From: a virus
Taxonomy: Duplodnaviria > Heunggongvirae > Uroviricota > Caudoviricetes
Reading direction: 5' to 3' (one strand)
IMG/VR virus record: IMGVR_UViG_2537562190_000023
DNA: 20,641 nucleotides
The position numbers were made by a program, and so were the translations under genes. Within the stretch, counting starts at the first letter, position 1; every line of letters begins with the position of its first letter. The notes beneath the pieces were generated by a model that saw nothing but the letters and a program-made list of their open reading frames with translations, ran no database searches and was not told the DNA's origin. This document shows, in pieces, positions 1,239 through 18,090 of the stretch.

Positions 1239-3176
1239 TTACGGGTTATTCACTTCCACTGTTATACTTTCAATCAGCACCGGATATGTCGCACCGCTAG
1301 TGATATCGGTCACGCGCAATTTGTCTGCCGTAAACGTGCCGACCGGTGACTGTGACAGCATGAACGGCGTCCCGTCCTTACCATCAATGACCGGCGTCAC
1401 CTCAATACTGTTGTTACCGGCAAAACGGAAGCCCAGCGTATGCCATTCGTTATCAAATGCGCCGAATGACCCCAGCTTCGTGTTCTGACCAGCATTTCCC
1501 TTGTGGTACATCACATTAAGGTCTGTGGCATCGCTCTGTACGTAAAACGACGCCAGCAGGTTATGACCGGCATTACCTTCCAGTGTGACGCCCTGAGGCA
1601 GTGAAGAAACCGGCCAGTACAGCGCCAGTGCGTACTGATTAGCTGTCAGTGTGCCATCAACTTTAAAACGACAACTGATAAGCCCGCCCTTCTCCAGCAG
1701 GTCTGCGCCATTACCGGCATCATGCTGCATAAACCACGAGGAACTTCCTGTCTGTTTGGTCCACCTCAGCGCCTTACCTCCTGCAGCACCTGCATCATCA
1801 ACTACCAATGCACGCCCTCCTTCAGCTCCCCATCCCTGCGGATTCAGTAAACCACCTGACTCTGTTGCACGGTAATAAAGCAGCGTTGTCACTGATTTCC
1901 CGTCCGTTGACGGTGTTGATGGTGTGTCCGGTGACGGCTTCTCATCCGGCGGCATCACAACCTGTTCCCCACCCTCCAGTTCAGCCGTCCGTCCTGCATG
2001 GAGAAGAATCGCTGAGGCAAGACGGTCAGAAATAATCCCCCTGCGTGCCCATGAGCTGAAATGGCTCGCACGGTCTGCTGACGTCCAGTTTGCCGACGTC
2101 CGGGAGGCCGCACCGTAATATCCTGATGCCGGAATATCCGGGTCTTCTTCCGGTTTGTTCGTCGGGACATTTGCTCCGTTCTCATCGGTCATGAACGGCA
2201 CAAAGTGAATATTCTTTTCCGTTTTGTTTTTGTAACTGCCGTACACCGTCTGGTAAGTGGATTCGCTCTTCTGCTTCCAGAAATAAGTTGTGTCTCCACA
2301 TATCCAGGGAACACCGTCAGCAGAACCACCAGCGCACTGTCCCACCATATCTGCAAGGTCCGTACGATATTGTTCCACTACTTCTGTAAAACGGGCTGTG
2401 TGATTTGCTGGCGTTCCGTCAAAGTCAAATTCCCCCTGCATCCACACCACGGCAAGCAGCACATTTTTCGGGTTCTTTGCCAGCGCGGCTTTTGTACGAC
2501 CGATGAGATCCTTATACAGCGGCCTGCCCACACCCCAGCGGGTAGAACTCTCTGAGGCACCGGTCACGTCACTGTATGTTCCATCTGCCCCGGTGGTGAA
2601 AGCTGAACCACCACGGCAGCACGGAACCAGAAGAATACCCGCATTCGCCGGTATAAACGGCAGCAGCTTTTTGGCAATATGCAGCCCCTGCCCCACGGTT
2701 CCGTACTGACCTTTCGACAGGTCAGCTTTCGGATGGTTAAGACGGCTCATGTCCTGTACATCATGCAGACAGTGGTCTGCCGGAATAATGTCGTTATATT
2801 TACAGGGAGCGCCATCCGGCGTCACTGTGCTGCGACGAGCCAGTTGCTTTATACGCGGGTCAGGACGGTCATATGTCTGCGGCAGAGGAAGCCCCTCACC
2901 GTAAGCCATGCCGTTCGACTGCCCGGCCAGTGGAATAACGTAGTAATAATCTGGCTCCGTGGTGACCACTCCCGGATAGCCACCATCCCCCGTGCCGGGC
3001 ACAACCACTGGCGTGGTCACATCCCCCTCCGCGGCAATCGCCTGCATCAGGGTATAAGGGGTTATGGCCACCGGACTACCAAACGGCTGCCAGCCCTCTT
3101 TCAGTTTGTGTGTCAGCTTTTCCGCAAGATCTGACGGCGACGCCGCCCTGACAACATCATAATGTTTAATCGACAT
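1239..3176 (-). CDS. nanS: Prophage sialate O-acetylesterase of the NanS-p type (DUF1737 N-terminus, SGNH/SASA esterase core, C-terminal lectin-like domain), 645 aa
   Basis: Long ORF with ATG at 3176 and SD GGGAGAAA. N-terminus MSIKHYDVVRAASPSDLAEKLTHKLKEGWQPFG is DUF1737-like. The esterase motif PLAGQSNGMAYGEG (GQSN block) is present. Size and position (downstream of Q, upstream of holin) match the NanS-p esterases of Stx and related lambdoid phages. Confidence 0.8.
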   Translation of the reverse strand: MSIKHYDVVRAASPSDLAEKLTHKLKEGWQPFGSPVAITPYTLMQAIAAEGDVTTPVVVPGTGDGGYPGVVTTEPDYYYVIPLAGQSNGMAYGEGLPLPQTYDRPDPRIKQLARRSTVTPDGAPCKYNDIIPADHCLHDVQDMSRLNHPKADLSKGQYGTVGQGLHIAKKLLPFIPANAGILLVPCCRGGSAFTTGADGTYSDVTGASESSTRWGVGRPLYKDLIGRTKAALAKNPKNVLLAVVWMQGEFDFDGTPANHTARFTEVVEQYRTDLADMVGQCAGGSADGVPWICGDTTYFWKQKSESTYQTVYGSYKNKTEKNIHFVPFMTDENGANVPTNKPEEDPDIPASGYYGAASRTSANWTSADRASHFSSWARRGIISDRLASAILLHAGRTAELEGGEQVVMPPDEKPSPDTPSTPSTDGKSVTTLLYYRATESGGLLNPQGWGAEGGRALVVDDAGAAGGKALRWTKQTGSSSWFMQHDAGNGADLLEKGGLISCRFKVDGTLTANQYALALYWPVSSLPQGVTLEGNAGHNLLASFYVQSDATDLNVMYHKGNAGQNTKLGSFGAFDNEWHTLGFRFAGNNSIEVTPVIDGKDGTPFMLSQSPVGTFTADKLRVTDITSGATYPVLIESITVEVNNP

Positions 3177-3262
3177 CGAATTTCTCCCGTGTACAGGAAC
3201 AGAGTTAAAAAGCCGGAACCGGAATCAAATCACAGGATGACCATCTGCCAGTGGCTGGTCGT

Positions 3263-3291
3263 AAAAAAAAGGCCGCGCCATGCGCAGCCGG
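3263..3291 (-). terminator. Rho-independent terminator (minus strand) about 90 bp upstream of nanS-p
   Basis: GC-rich hairpin GGCTGCGC/GCGCGGCC (8 bp with one G-U pair) at 3271-3291, followed on the minus strand by a U8 run (plus-strand A8 at 3263-3270). Confidence 0.45.
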
Positions 3292-3653
3292 AAATAAAGG
3301 GATAACGATGATAGTTTGAGAAAAACAGAAATAACACTTTTGTGGCAAAGCATGGTGCCGGGTGCCTCCCGGTGAATTCAGTACCAGCACCTGAATCCGC
3401 GATTATCCCATATACCTGGTTGCTGATTGCCCCTCCGCACAGGGGGATTCACCATGCAGTAGTATTTTTAATAAACAGTAAACAAAAAAATCAAGCATTA
3501 TGCAGGCTGTTTCTTTTTATCACCGGCCACAGCAATACCACAATGCCGCAGACCAGCCCCCATCCGCCAGCACCGACATGATTCTGCTGGTGAAATCCAC
3601 CATCACCACCAGAAACAGCAGGAGTGCAGCCACAGCCAGGCGCAGTTTTACCG

Positions 3654-4046
3654 TCACAGGTGATTCTCCAGACGAAGCCCCAGAACACCGGCAATCTCTT
3701 CCAGCACCTTGCGCTCTTCCGGCTCAATTTCGCCGTCTGCCTCCGCAATGGCCACCGCCACATCCAGCACATCTTCCGCTTCACGCGTATCGCGTTTCAC
3801 ATCCTCGATCTCACGTAACGCCGCACGACGACCAATTTTAAAGTTCGTATCCAGCTGACCGATAATGGTTGCGCTAATCGCATTAATTTCTGACGTAAAC
3901 GCGGACAGCGCTGGCTGATTACGCAGTACCTGTTCGATCTTCGCTTTCTAGGAAGCCTCACATTCACCATTTGCACAGGCCACCAGGTATGCGGCGTTAA
4001 TCACCGCCTGTGCCAGATCGCGTTTCTCAAACTTTCCTTTTTCCGG
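3654..4046 (-). pseudogene. TerB-like domain ORF with no start codon and an in-frame amber stop; probable pseudogene
   Basis: Minus-strand frame reads ...KRDLAQAVINAAYLVACANGECEAS*KAKIEQVLRNQPALSAFTSEINAISATIIGQLDTNFKIGRRAALREIEDVKRDTREAEDVLDVAVAIAEADGEIEPEERKVLEEIAGVLGLRLENHL. The TAG is at 3948-3950. No ATG/GTG/TTG lies between the upstream stop (4047-4049) and the TAG. The C-terminal DGEI...EE...L..IA..LGL pattern resembles TerB/DjlA-N-type domains (from memory). Confidence 0.4.
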
Positions 4047-4147
4047 TTAACGTGACACACCAATAACTCTTGTCGAAAAAGCCAGCAAGCTGAAAGACCG
4101 GTATTCACAACCACCAGCGCGTTTACTGTACTGGCGTGATTTCAGTC

Positions 4148-4173
4148 ATAAAAAAACCCGCCTGGCGACGGGT
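4148..4173 (-). terminator. tR'-like rho-independent terminator about 80 bp downstream of the Q-like gene
   Basis: Minus-strand RNA forms CCCGUC-GCCA-GGCGGG (6-bp stem, tetraloop) followed by U7 (plus-strand A-run 4149-4155). Confidence 0.5.
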
Positions 4174-4220
4174 GTAAAAAATCTTCTAACGTCAGGCATA
4201 AAACGCCCATCGTTAGGGCA

Positions 4221-4248
4221 AATTTACCACAGATTCGGGAAAAATCAA
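4221..4248 (-). promoter_or_regulatory. Candidate late promoter (pR'-like) immediately downstream of the Q-like gene
   Basis: Minus-strand TTGATT (-35, plus 4243-4248), 16-bp spacer, TAAATT (-10, plus 4221-4226). Together with the terminator at 4148-4173 it would give a transcript of about 65 nt, analogous to the lambda pR'/6S RNA/tR' unit. Confidence 0.35.
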
Positions 4249-4253
4249 CAAAG

Positions 4254-5075
4254 CTATCTGGTCACCTTTTTCAGTTGTTGTTCTGCCCATGCTTCTTCAA
4301 TATCAAACTGCACCACCAGCGTATCGTAAAAACGTTTAACTGTTTTTTTCCATGTATCAAGAGATATGGCATCGGTTACATTACATATGGCATTAAATGC
4401 CTCCGTTGAAGGTAATCTTTCATAGCCACGACCACCACAACGCTGGCAGTCTCTGATAACAGGCATACCACGTTTTACCGACTCTTCACGATGAATGGCA
4501 ACACCGCGCCCACGACAATCTTTACAGGCGGTGGAAACCTCCCCCTTCCCTCCACACTCCGGACAGGCAACTTTTACCACCTCCCTGACTTTTTTCCATT
4601 CCTCCCAGTAAGACGGATACACGCCTTTTGTGCACTTTGCCCACACTGGCGGCTTACCATCCGGATACTGGATCTTGTTTGTAAAAACCTCGCTTTCAAT
4701 AAATTTTTTTCCGTGACAACAGGGGCACTGTTTTTTGCTCGCCGCGCTACGGGCATAATCTTCAAACGCATACGAAGCCATAATACGCATCACTGCCGGT
4801 TTTATTTCTGCCGGGAGTTTTCTTAACGCCGCCACGCGATCACACCGACTGAGTGCATATTCTGTCAGCAATTCTGTTGCCCGCTCTCTGTCATTCATAC
4901 TAATGCCCATTTTCCCAAGGAACGCAGAAAACCCCATCTCAGCCCAATTCTGTGTCATGCCCTGCGCGGCCATCACATCAGTGATACTCAGCGTATCTTT
5001 CGACGTTGAGGCCGATGCATCAGTCAGGCCGGGGGATTTTGGGGAGTAGTATTTCGGTAAATCTTCCAGTTTCAT
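4254..5075 (-). CDS. Late-gene antitermination protein Q-like (large, zinc-finger-containing type), 273 aa
   Basis: ATG at 5075 overlaps the rusA stop (ATGA). Contains CxxC clusters (CPCCHGKK, CPECGGKG, CKDCRGRG, CQRCGGRG). Position directly after rusA and directly before a promoter/terminator pair and the lysis region matches Q of lambdoid phages (QuuQ / phage-82-like size class). The Q call rests mainly on position. Confidence 0.55.
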   Translation of the reverse strand: MKLEDLPKYYSPKSPGLTDASASTSKDTLSITDVMAAQGMTQNWAEMGFSAFLGKMGISMNDRERATELLTEYALSRCDRVAALRKLPAEIKPAVMRIMASYAFEDYARSAASKKQCPCCHGKKFIESEVFTNKIQYPDGKPPVWAKCTKGVYPSYWEEWKKVREVVKVACPECGGKGEVSTACKDCRGRGVAIHREESVKRGMPVIRDCQRCGGRGYERLPSTEAFNAICNVTDAISLDTWKKTVKRFYDTLVVQFDIEEAWAEQQLKKVTR

Positions 5076-7334: not shown

Positions 7335-7490
7335 TTACTCCTCAGGTTCGTAAGCTGTGAAGACAGCGACCTCCGTCTGGCCGGTTCGGATTCGTACCTC
7401 GCAGAGGTCTTTCCTCGTTACCAGTGCCGTCACTATGACGGTTAAACAGATGACGATCAGGGCGATTAACATCGCCTTTTGCTGCTTCAT
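7335..7490 (-). CDS. hok: Hok/Gef-family type I toxin, 51 aa; an in-frame upstream extension to 7547 forms a mok-like leader ORF
   Basis: MKQQKAMLIALIVICLTVIVTALVTRKDLCEVRIRTGQTEVAVFTAYEPEE is a canonical Hok/RelF-type sequence (single TM helix, conserved Cys, acidic C-terminus). The 70-codon ORF 7335-7547 starts at ATG 7547. Confidence 0.85.
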   Translation of the reverse strand: MKQQKAMLIALIVICLTVIVTALVTRKDLCEVRIRTGQTEVAVFTAYEPEE

Positions 7491-7534
7491 AGCCTGCTTC
7501 TCCTTGACCTTTCGGTCCGTAAGAGGCAATCTAT

Positions 7535-7590
7535 ATGTGACGAGCATATAGGGGCCTCACTTCGATTTATAGTCGGGTGGGGCTTTTATC
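7535..7590 (+). ncRNA. Predicted Sok-like antisense RNA overlapping the mok translation-initiation region
   Basis: Plus-strand TTGACC at 7504-7509 could serve as a -35. A possible terminator hairpin (CCUCAC/GUGGGG with one G-U pair, 7556-7582) is followed by CUUUUAUC. The region is antisense to the mok start at 7547. Boundaries are approximate. Confidence 0.3.
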
Positions 7591-7792
7591 TATCTGCCGT
7601 TGGTGTTCATGCCCGAGGCAGATAGCCTCAAGCACCCGCAGCAATTCTACTTAACTCTGCCGTTACAGCAAGCCGTTTTCGTCCGATATGGGAATTCCCA
7701 TATCGGAATGAATTCAGTTCACCTGGCGAGGCTTAGCGTACAATTTTTTCCGTTTTGTGAGCTGCCCCTACATGCCGCTGGCGCGGCATCCG

Positions 7793-14324: not shown

Positions 14325-14806
14325 AATAACAGGAACCACCTCGCCTGACGTGGTTAAAAGCAGGCACACAACGCGAAAGCGTACGGCGAGGTAGCTGGTT
14401 CATAGATAGCCTGTCGTTAAATTTTCGTCGACCGTGCGCTTCCGGTTGTGGCAGTCCGCGAAATGGCGCGGCGGTAAGTATGGCTGGGGTTTCCTCCATT
14501 GCTCCAGAAAATGCACCGGGTTGTCAGGTTGACCATACGCTTAAGTGACAACCCCGCTACAACGCCCTCTGTTATCAATTTTCTGGTGACATTTGGCGGT
14601 ATCAGTTTTACTCCGTGACTGCTCTGCCGCCCTTTTTAAAGTGAATTTTGTGATGCGGTGAATGCGGCTAAGCGCACGCGGAACAGTTAAAACCAAAAAC
14701 AGTGTTATGGGTGGATTCTCTGTATCCGGCGTTAATTGTTAACTGGTTAACGTCACCTGGAGGCACCAGGCACTGCATCACAAAATTCATTGTTGAGGAC
14801 GCGATA

Positions 14807-16876: not shown

Positions 16877-17764
16877 TCAGGCTGCCAGATCATCGTTTCC
16901 GATGGAAGCATAATAAGCTTTTTCTGCTTCTGCCGGGGGAGTATGGCCCAGCCTTTCCAGCAATCGTCGATTGTTATACCAGTCCACCCACGTGAGTGTG
17001 GCCAGTTCCACTTCTGCACGGTTTTTCCAGCTCTTACGGTGTATTACCTCCGCTTTGTAAAGACCATTGATGCTCTCCGCCATCGCGTTGTCATACGAGT
17101 CGCCAGTACTCCCTGTTGATGCCAGTAATCCGGCTTCCTTAAGCCGCTGCGTGTAGGCCAGCGATACATACTGAGAACCTTTATCACTGTGATGGATTGT
17201 GCCGGACGGCCGACGGGCCCACAACGCCTGCTCCAGTGCATCCAGCACGAATGTTGTTTCCATGGATGATGAGACCTGCCATCCCACGATGTATCCGGCG
17301 AACACATCAATGATGAACGCCACATAAACGAAGCCCTGCCATGTGCTTACCCAGGTAAAATCAGCCACCCACAACTGGTCTGGACGTTCTGCCACGAACT
17401 GACGGTTTACGCGGTCGCATGCGGCAACGGCTTTCCGGCTGACGGTAGTGCGGACCTTTTTACCCCGGAGAACACCGGCAAGTCCCATAACCGCCATGAG
17501 ACGTGCCACAGTGCATCTGGCCACTCTGATACCTTCCCGTAACAACTGACGCCAGACTTTACGCACACCGTATACCTTGTGATTTTCATCGTATACGCGC
17601 TGTATCTCTTTCTTCAGCCAGTCATCGCGCTGCGCACGGGCACTGCGTTTATCCGGATAATGTCGCTGTTGCTGACAGTGGTAATACGTTGACGGGGCAA
17701 TATGCAGTTCGCTGCATACCGGTCCGACCCCGTACTGCTCACGCAGCTTATCCAGCAGTGGCAT
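16877..17764 (-). CDS. IS629 transposase OrfB (DDE catalytic domain)
   Basis: 295 aa beginning [29 protein letters not shown] and ending ASIGNDDLAA, matching IS629 OrfB as recalled. ATG overlaps the orfA stop (TAATG). Confidence 0.9.
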   Translation of the reverse strand: MPLLDKLREQYGVGPVCSELHIAPSTYYHCQQQRHYPDKRSARAQRDDWLKKEIQRVYDENHKVYGVRKVWRQLLREGIRVARCTVARLMAVMGLAGVLRGKKVRTTVSRKAVAACDRVNRQFVAERPDQLWVADFTWVSTWQGFVYVAFIIDVFAGYIVGWQVSSSMETTFVLDALEQALWARRPSGTIHHSDKGSQYVSLAYTQRLKEAGLLASTGSTGDSYDNAMAESINGLYKAEVIHRKSWKNRAEVELATLTWVDWYNNRRLLERLGHTPPAEAEKAYYASIGNDDLAA

Positions 17765-18090
17765 TATTTTTTCCAGAGGCGGTCGAACTCCGCCTTCGCA
17801 AAATAAGCGGAAGCCTGGCGAAGGATATCGTTACTGCGGCGCAGTTCACGATTTTCACGTTCCAGCTCTTTCAGACGCTGACGTTCAGCGGTGGTGAGTC
17901 CACCATCACCACTCCCGGTATCCCGCTCATGCTGGCGAACCCAGACACGCAGAGTCTCCGGCGTACAGCCAATCTTTGGGGCAATGGAACAAATTGCCGC
18001 CCACTGTGAGTCATATTCATCCTGACTTTCCAGAACCATACGAATCGCCCGCTGACGGACTTCGGGGGAAAAACGAGTATTTTTAGTCAT
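17764..18090 (-). CDS. IS629 transposase OrfA (HTH / leucine-zipper part)
   Basis: 108 aa [59 protein letters not shown]..., matching IS629 OrfA as recalled. An A6 run sits at the orfA/orfB junction, where IS3-family -1 frameshifting occurs. Confidence 0.9.

Follow-up and report, generated by a model that had tools for sequence, protein, structure and literature searches.

Background

The tci genes take their name from phage P1, in which the tciABC set was named for homology to terB with no measured phenotype. The P1 genes are non-essential accessory genes, as established by CRISPR interference (CRISPRi) (PMC10695390; PMC9603915), and the published statements on the function of tci genes are based on homology (PMC9603915, PMC10695390). 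Our search of the literature found no functional study of TciA, TciB or DUF3927, only the homology-based naming and the CRISPRi non-essentiality in P1. Lambdoid phages carry related genes, whose names derive from those of P1 and whose TciA products are 42–51% identical to P1 TciA over the full length. Here we analyze a copy of these lambdoid genes in a 20,641-nucleotide (nt) stretch of Caudoviricetes DNA (IMG/VR record IMGVR_UViG_2537562190_000023), the whole of which is referred to below as the window. We conclude with high confidence that the tciA–tciB accessory ('moron') cassette known from lambdoid phages survives in this region as a non-functional remnant, situated in the late operon between Q/PR'/tR' and nanS-p.

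Intact tciA (432 nt, 143 amino acids (aa)) and tciB (165–168 nt, 54–55 aa) are present in phages JLK-2012 and Evi, in PPyecE_EH1910 (where the product is called 'TciA/TerB-like protein') and in a prophage of E. coli O145 RM9872. Intact TciA is predicted to be a cytoplasmic TerB-domain protein, and intact TciB a 55-aa peptide with two hydrophobic segments (DUF3927). In the PHROGs collection the intact proteins belong to phrog_632 ('tellurite resistance', E = 1.7e-69) and phrog_1470 ('TciB-like inhibition of cell division or resistance to colicin', E = 1.5e-29), both of the 'moron' category. Full-length TciA relatives occur in 130 phage records, including phages of Erwinia, Vibrio, Pseudomonas, Klebsiella and Salmonella. 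The defence-system models of PADLOC-DB gave no credible match, with a marginal hit of TciA to PDC-S48 (E = 0.0035, 14.5 bits) and none for TciB. The intact pair would most likely act as an accessory stress-tolerance or exclusion module at the inner membrane, with the TerB protein translationally coupled to the two-segment peptide; the whole basis for this role is the TerB homology together with the membrane partner.

The window shows the arrangement of the four intact cassettes, that is, a TerB-type gene followed directly by an overlapping DUF3927 gene on the same strand, and its DNA is 91–92% identical to the tciA–tciB region of JLK-2012 and Evi. As in JLK-2012, Evi and PPyecE_EH1910, the pair lies after Q/tR' and before nanS-p, in the same orientation and with a GTGA overlap. 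In contrast to those copies, the window lacks the start and codons 1–17 of tciA, carries a stop in place of E46 as well as the changes D39N and H98R, and has a −1 frameshift in tciB. Also missing are the genes that separate Q from tciA in the intact phages, which are either tRNA genes or the methylase and toxin–antitoxin genes. We saw no equivalent of the P1 tciC gene in the window; P1 is a phage-plasmid and offers another regulatory context.

The nearest solved structure is that of Klebsiella TerB (PDB 2JXU), with which residues 14–137 of intact TciA align (E = 4e-8). However, Klebsiella TerB belongs to the terZABCDE operon, whereas the window locus consists of a stand-alone TerB-domain gene, here a pseudogene, plus a DUF3927 peptide. 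There are no ter genes among the 13 annotated features of the 7.1-kb RefSeq locus that contains the identical sequence, so that the co-encoded genes of a ter operon are missing; the neighbors are Q, the DUF3927 gene, a small RNA (sRNA) gene and nanS-p.

The tciA remnant

The remnants and their lesions are listed here, with the evidence in parentheses. Coordinates are those of the whole window, and the genes of the cassette region are all on the minus strand.

4036..4148, minus strand: post-tR' leader, with the purine-rich ribosome-binding region of a deleted 65-aa gene at its end (alignment to Stx2_EH1910)
4030..4040, no strand assigned: deletion junction at which the leader is joined to tciA codon 18 (alignments to both parental sequences)
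4046..3654, minus strand: TerB-domain frame, with TGA at 3656..3654 (translation)
3654..4035, minus strand: tciA pseudogene, codons 18–143 plus stop of a 143-codon TerB-family gene (translation, Pfam, DNA identity, PGAP)
3969..3971, minus strand: D39N (GAT→AAT), missense change of the window lineage (differs from sister alleles sharing the junction and the TAG)
3948..3950, minus strand: nonsense mutation of codon 46, GAG (Glu) to TAG (alignment with JLK-2012, Evi and RM9872, all GAG)
3654..3800, minus strand: longest surviving open reading frame (ORF) of the TerB frame, 48 codons (ORF list; internal GTG, codon 96, to the native stop)
3792..3794, minus strand: H98R (CAC→CGC), missense change of the window lineage (differs from sister alleles sharing the junction and the TAG)
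3657..3520, minus strand: tciB' (DUF3927), a GTG-initiated ORF of 45 codons (ORF list, Pfam; 'DUF3927 family protein' WP_001435346.1 in PGAP)
3557..3561, minus strand: run of five G (C5 on the plus strand), site of the −1 frameshift, G6 in the 55-codon allele (alignment)
3491..3556, minus strand: former C-terminal coding part of tciB (…LVCGIVVLLWPVIKRNSLHNA, then stop), now out of frame (seen in a 97-aa ORF, 3784..3491)

Translation of positions 4100..3654 shows that the TerB frame is open back to 4046, the preceding TAA being at 4049..4047. The conceptual product reads PEKGKFEKRDLAQAVINAAYLVACANGECEAS-TAG-KAKIEQVLRNQ...GLRLENHL-TGA, and the TAG at 3950..3948 is the sole stop within 131 otherwise open codons. 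An earlier interpretation of this DNA, made from the letters alone and called here the sequence-only reading, had described a TerB-like frame with an in-frame TAG and no start codon. The TAG is indeed present in the translation, and the statement on the start codon is right in substance, if not to the letter: no ATG lies in frame between the TAA and the TAG, and the two in-frame GTGs found upstream of the TAG (4004..4002 and 3983..3981) both lack a usable Shine-Dalgarno sequence and could start peptides no longer than 18 codons.

With the TAG taken as X, the remnant (4046..3654) matches the Pfam TerB profile PF05099 with 38.5 bits (E = 1.6e-9, cut-off 24.4) and covers profile positions 2–109 of 118; intact TciA relatives score 60.2 bits (E = 2.9e-16). 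The TerB similarity of the locus and its DUF3927 similarity (see below) are both above the curated cut-offs and are not due to chance. NCBIfam models gave sub-threshold matches only, such as 28.6 bits for the TerB-like part of DjlA, where the cut-off is 162. The remnant thus passes the PF05099 profile cut-off, with no uninterrupted translatable ORF for the whole domain. It is a pseudogene of the TerB family and not a functional member, because it has no start, its first 17 codons are deleted, a TAG occupies codon 46 and the longest in-frame ORF has 48 codons. From the missing start, the truncated N-terminus and the stop at codon 46 we infer that no TerB-domain protein can be made from this tciA.

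The 48-codon ORF matches only TerB profile positions 71–109 of 118, and is a C-terminal fragment rather than a gene of its own. The PHROGs collection contains a 48-aa family of 'unknown function', phrog_3920, that coincides exactly with TciA residues 96–143 (window 3800..3654). This family is probably an annotation by-product, collecting mis-annotated fragments of a common tciA pseudogene.

Comparison with intact homologues, which the sequence-only reading had proposed as a check, identifies the TAG as a point mutation, a single G→T change in the GAG codon that is found in JLK-2012, Evi and RM9872. Over 861 nt the window differs from the sister alleles that share both the junction and the TAG at only three sites, namely 3971 (D39N), 3793 (H98R) and a missing G in tciB. 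D39N falls within the TerB domain, in its first A-D-G-E acidic motif. All three differences lie inside dead coding remnants, a distribution that would be expected under relaxed selection, small as the numbers are. The two missense changes in the dead tciA and the −1 slip in the G6 run of tciB would have followed later, in the lineage of the window.

The deletion junction

Alignment of the window to Stx2_EH1910 and PPyecE_EH1910 mapped the junction. The window leader is 99.6% identical to that of the Stx2a phage Stx2_EH1910 up to position 4033. In both Stx2_EH1910 and PPyecE_EH1910 the leader reads ...CCGGAAAAGGGAAAAAGACATG into a 198-nt gene, running on in Stx2_EH1910 as ...GGGAAAAAGACATG; the window instead has ...CCGGAAAAAGGAAAG joined directly to TTTGAGAAACGC. 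Homology to intact tciA starts only at AAG TTT GAG, codons 18–20, and the junction sits in an A-rich microhomology, GAAA(AA)G, present in both parental sequences. When a 117-nt query spanning the junction was used, copies with an intact 5' end lost homology exactly at query position 100, which corresponds to window position 4035.

The gene order in PPyecE_EH1910 is Q, a 65-aa gene, a DNA methylase gene, two small regulator/stability genes, tciA, tciB and nanS. Relative to this order about 2.6 kb is missing from the window, including the start codon of tciA; the start is missing because the deletion fused the leader to codon 18. A deletion at the A-rich microhomology in a PPyecE_EH1910-like ancestor would have removed the 65-aa gene, the DNA methylase gene, the toxin–antitoxin-like pair and the tciA start.

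The tciB' frameshift

The hydrophobic ORF of 45 codons at 3520–3657 is present as the sequence-only reading described it. It begins MTVKLRLAVAALLLFLVVMV..., and its GTG start overlaps the TGA of the TerB frame as GTGA (3657..3654). What had gone unnoticed is that this ORF is a frameshifted allele of a 55-codon gene. The tract in the window, GGATGGGGGCTGG, has five G, whereas the O55:H7 and O145 alleles in RefSeq have six and keep an in-frame tciB of 55 codons encoding VTVKLRLAVAALLLFLVVMVDFTSRIMSVLADGGLVCGIVVLLWPVIKRNSLHNA (55 aa). The first 34 codons of tciB' are native; 11 out-of-frame codons (WSAALWYCCGR) follow, so that residues 35–55 of TciB are replaced. The lost C-terminal part contains the second hydrophobic segment, and the hydropathy profile of tciB' is without a second peak.

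The 45-aa product matches DUF3927 (PF13064) with 36.9 bits (E = 3.6e-9, cut-off 25), its residues 3–35 aligning with profile positions 2–34 of 53, compared with 60.5 bits for the in-frame allele. It therefore passes the cut-off of the profile and lacks the full length (about 53–55 aa) and the two hydrophobic segments of a TciB protein. To judge from these features, TciB' is very probably inactive.

A rare allele with seven G encodes 53 aa, and in Evi and O26 the tract is interrupted (GGGGTG). The run is a small mutational hot spot, with five, six or seven G on near-identical backgrounds. The NCBI Prokaryotic Genome Annotation Pipeline (PGAP) labels the 45-, 55- and 53-aa products all as DUF3927 proteins and leaves the frameshifts unflagged.

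These results bear out the first of the two possibilities raised by the sequence-only reading, that of decaying cargo: the TAG goes back to a G→T change in a GAG that relatives have kept, the start has been deleted and the partner gene is frameshifted. The former pair of a TerB-like protein and a small membrane peptide that it had imagined turns out to be the known, translationally overlapping tciA–tciB cassette.

Distribution among E. coli genomes

We counted alleles in 5426 complete E. coli genomes. Positions 3180–4260 of the window (1081 nt) are 100% identical to E. coli O103:H2 str. 12009 (NC_013353.1, 1793885–1794965) and to 13 other Shiga toxin-producing E. coli (STEC) genomes; these 14 genomes span serogroups O103:H2, O45:H2, O103 and O121. 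At least 80% of this interval is present in 456 genomes. In NC_013353.1 PGAP annotates the locus (ECO103_RS29490) as a 'tellurite resistance TerB family protein' pseudogene with 'internal stop', beside a DUF3927 protein. Among RefSeq alleles, that of 12009 shows no difference from the window, and ECO55CA74_RS27630 (NC_017656.1), with 99.6% identical DNA, has the same annotation.

A 61-mer across the deletion junction was found, at least 80% covered, in 501 of the 5426 genomes (about 9%), and all six of the junction-bearing loci inspected are flagged 'internal stop'. An exact 63-mer with the TAG occurs in 278 records. The same haplotype with the ancestral GAG is exact in 40 records, which include intact 432-nt genes, and 790 genomes have the intact 5' end of tciA. 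For an allele combining the junction with GAG there was no exact case in the 5426 genomes (best match 99.1%); the combination of TAG with an intact 5' end was not searched. Exact alleles of the tciB G run with five, six and seven G were found in 15, 263 and 2 records, respectively. On these counts the truncated, amber-carrying tciA is an old and widely spread allele. The tciB frameshift, limited to 15 near-identical STEC genomes, is derived and arose recently within a single lineage of STEC prophages, represented by the 14 genomes with 100% identity.

Dead and intact copies can share a genome. E. coli O103:H2 PV16-126 carries the window allele at 99.9% identity; a second prophage of this strain has both genes intact (432 nt for tciA, 168 nt for tciB), arranged as tRNA-Ile, tRNA-Arg, tciA, tciB, nanS-p.

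Many non-STEC genomes (for example O104:H4 2009EL-2050, at about 3.17 Mb) contain a stretch 82% identical to the 5' region of tciA (query 7–110), which is annotated there as 'DUF3927 domain-containing protein'. This suggests another gene arrangement or a cassette fusion in those prophages.

Neighboring elements

The elements on either side of the cassette are as follows.

5075..4254, minus strand: Q antitermination protein gene, upstream context (273-codon ORF; 'antitermination protein' WP_000762928.1 in the identical NC_013353 locus)
4149..4173, minus strand: tR'-type intrinsic terminator (terminator scan; hairpin 4173..4156, ACCCGTCGCCAGGCGGGT, then T7)
3483..3317, minus strand: STnc100/PasD-family sRNA gene, adjoining the cassette and not a part of it (Rfam RF02076)
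3263–3289, minus strand: terminator-like hairpin (3289..3271), GGCTGCGCATGGCGCGGCC, then T8 (terminator scan)
3176..1239, minus strand: nanS-p-type SASA-family esterase gene, downstream context (645-codon ORF; 'SASA family carbohydrate esterase' WP_000023165.1 in PGAP)

The terminator scan, the ORF list and the RefSeq annotation of the neighbors agree with the placement of the locus between tR' and nanS-p by the sequence-only reading. Its comparison with Shiga toxin (Stx) phages, which carry tRNAs and stx at this place, was also apt: Stx2_EH1910 shares the Q gene and leader and continues with a 65-aa gene, a methylase gene, tRNAs and stx2A. The tR' sequence of the window is likewise found 3' of Q in Stx2_EH1910 and PPyecE_EH1910.

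In a scan of 3150–4300 the coding strand showed no sigma-70-like promoter, the interval from tR' to tciB included; the single site found lies on the opposite strand and is at chance level (1 found, 1.2 expected). The segment would be transcribed passively, only within the Q-antiterminated late transcript.

The STnc100 match (3317–3483, minus strand) covers the full length of the Rfam model with 101.6 bits (gathering score 47, E = 1.8e-21) and begins 8 nt past the in-frame tciB stop. A preprint groups STnc100 with the prophage PasD sRNAs, of which PasD2 flanks a sialic-acid esterase gene (10.64898/2026.05.13.724894). The last codons of tciB, CAT AAT GCT TGA (3502..3491), would supply a candidate −10 element, CATAAT, at the right distance for an STnc100-type sRNA. 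The strong hairpin at 3263–3289 (minus strand) sits between the STnc100 match and the start of nanS-p, and expression of nanS-p from the late transcript would need read-through of this hairpin by the Q-modified polymerase. On the opposite strand, at about 3153–3296 of the window, PGAP annotates a fragmentary 'hypothetical protein' pseudogene.

Three further RNA elements were recognized elsewhere in the window. A sok antitoxin RNA (RF01794, 103.9 bits, 7488–7637, minus strand) upstream of the DUF968/RusA/Q block indicates a hok/sok-type (hokD-like) toxin–antitoxin locus; hokD is annotated at the same position in O55:H7 RM12579. The DicF antisense sRNA is present at 14581–14632 on the plus strand (RF00039, 77 bits), and the prophage therefore carries a Qin/dicB-type immunity-region module. 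An ALIL pseudoknot (RF01497, 120.3 bits, 17693–17809, minus strand) lies between two overlapping ORFs (16877–18090, minus strand); it serves an IS3-family insertion sequence within the prophage as its programmed-frameshift element.

Alternative interpretations

The second possibility raised by the sequence-only reading was that of an amber-interrupted gene with expression confined to a suppressor background. A functional TerB gene of this kind would be expressed conditionally, whenever a suppressor tRNA of the supE type, or one carried by the phage, decoded the UAG. That the TAG is the only stop in 131 open codons and belongs to a widespread allele (the 63-mer exact in 278 records) is what such a gene would display. 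However, it would also have a start, a conserved stop and a cognate suppressor, and we found none of them: there is no ATG and no ribosome-binding site at the in-frame GTGs, 17 N-terminal codons are deleted, the TAG replaces a GAG conserved in intact copies, and D39N hits the conserved acidic motif. A tRNA scan found no tRNA gene in the window, and thus no phage-borne suppressor; the tRNAs beside intact copies (Gly/Asn/Arg/Lys/Met/Ile) all have sense anticodons. Expression in a suppressor background was accordingly not borne out, and we regard such a gene as very improbable. An error of sequencing or assembly is hardly conceivable as the source either of the stop codon, for which the sequence-only reading had named an artefact as a refutation, or of the frameshift. 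Indels in homopolymers are frequent errors, but exact copies of the TAG haplotype occur in 278 independent complete assemblies, those of the five-G tract in 15 records including the 12009 reference genome, and the junction is found in 501 genomes; the TAG and the junction, which recur across independent assemblies, are no artefacts. The alleles with five, six and seven G on otherwise near-identical backgrounds might also be read as a phase-variable (contingency) switch operating by slipped-strand mispairing. Against this, six G make a short tract for slippage to be efficient, the off alleles are rare (15 and 2 records, compared with 263 for the in-frame one), interruption of the tract in other haplotypes (GGGGTG) has no consequence, and the identity of 14 genomes of several serogroups over 1081 nt fits a single event, inherited or horizontally shared, better than it fits frequent switching. 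A switch of this kind is very unlikely.

There is a slight chance that something of the cassette still works, in that the 48-aa C-terminal half of the TerB domain (from the GTG at 3800), the 45-aa TciB' or both might be translated and active, for example as a membrane peptide. Both ORFs exist, PGAP annotates TciB' as a protein, TciB' keeps the native GGAG-N8-GTG start and the first hydrophobic segment, and the 48-aa fragment is so often annotated as a gene that it makes up phrog_3920. On the other side, the 48-aa ORF is a half-domain with a poor site for ribosome binding, since its GTG follows GAGGAT at a spacing of 1–2 nt, and the simplest view of phrog_3920 is that of an annotation by-product. 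The TciB' allele, with 15 records as opposed to 263 for the in-frame allele, is rare and clonal; it has lost the second hydrophobic peak and has dropped from 60.5 to 36.9 bits. A somewhat different proposal, to which we give a low probability, is that tciB is kept without tciA, either as a membrane peptide in its own right or as the promoter of the sRNA, the G run serving as an occasional on/off switch and the window representing an 'off' state rather than terminal decay. This proposal is based on the 55-codon tciB that is intact in most of the roughly 500 genomes with a dead tciA, and on the resemblance of its last codons to a −10 element of the sRNA.

The view that the whole cassette is dead has several points to answer. 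The 48-codon TerB fragment and the 45-aa TciB' remain as ORFs, the latter unflagged in PGAP; a GGAG lies 8 nt before the tciB GTG, from which TciB' could be translated. That tciB is intact in most of the genomes with a dead tciA could mean that it has a value of its own, in which case the death of the whole cassette would be specific to the lineage of the window. The deletion and the nonsense mutation may have come in either order, and the role suggested for intact TciA and TciB stands on homology. Decay of the cassette nevertheless remains the interpretation that we hold to be highly probable. The remnant would have no protein function. It would persist as filler because it is small and neutral and because its flanks are maintained elements, tR' upstream and the STnc100/PasD-type sRNA gene and nanS-p downstream.

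Significance

The tciA pseudogene was already annotated in RefSeq by PGAP, and the cassette had been named in phage records. The present analysis adds the deletion junction as the explanation for the lack of a start, the derivation of the TAG by a G→T change, the recognition of the 45-aa DUF3927 'protein' as a frameshifted allele, and the allele frequencies. The locus is an ordinary case of the decay of prophage cargo. It illustrates the course of decay in the variable cargo slot that lambdoid and Stx-type prophages have downstream of Q, with a microhomology deletion, nonsense and missense mutations and a homopolymer slip, and it shows the spread of a single pseudogene allele to 501 of the 5426 complete E. 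coli genomes (about 9%). Where annotations of such prophages list the 48-aa 'gene' (phrog_3920) or the 45-aa DUF3927 'protein', these ought to be read as fragments of pseudogenes, and a suppressor-dependent TerB protein is not worth seeking at this locus. Strains with both dead and intact copies are possible natural controls for studying the function of TciA and TciB.

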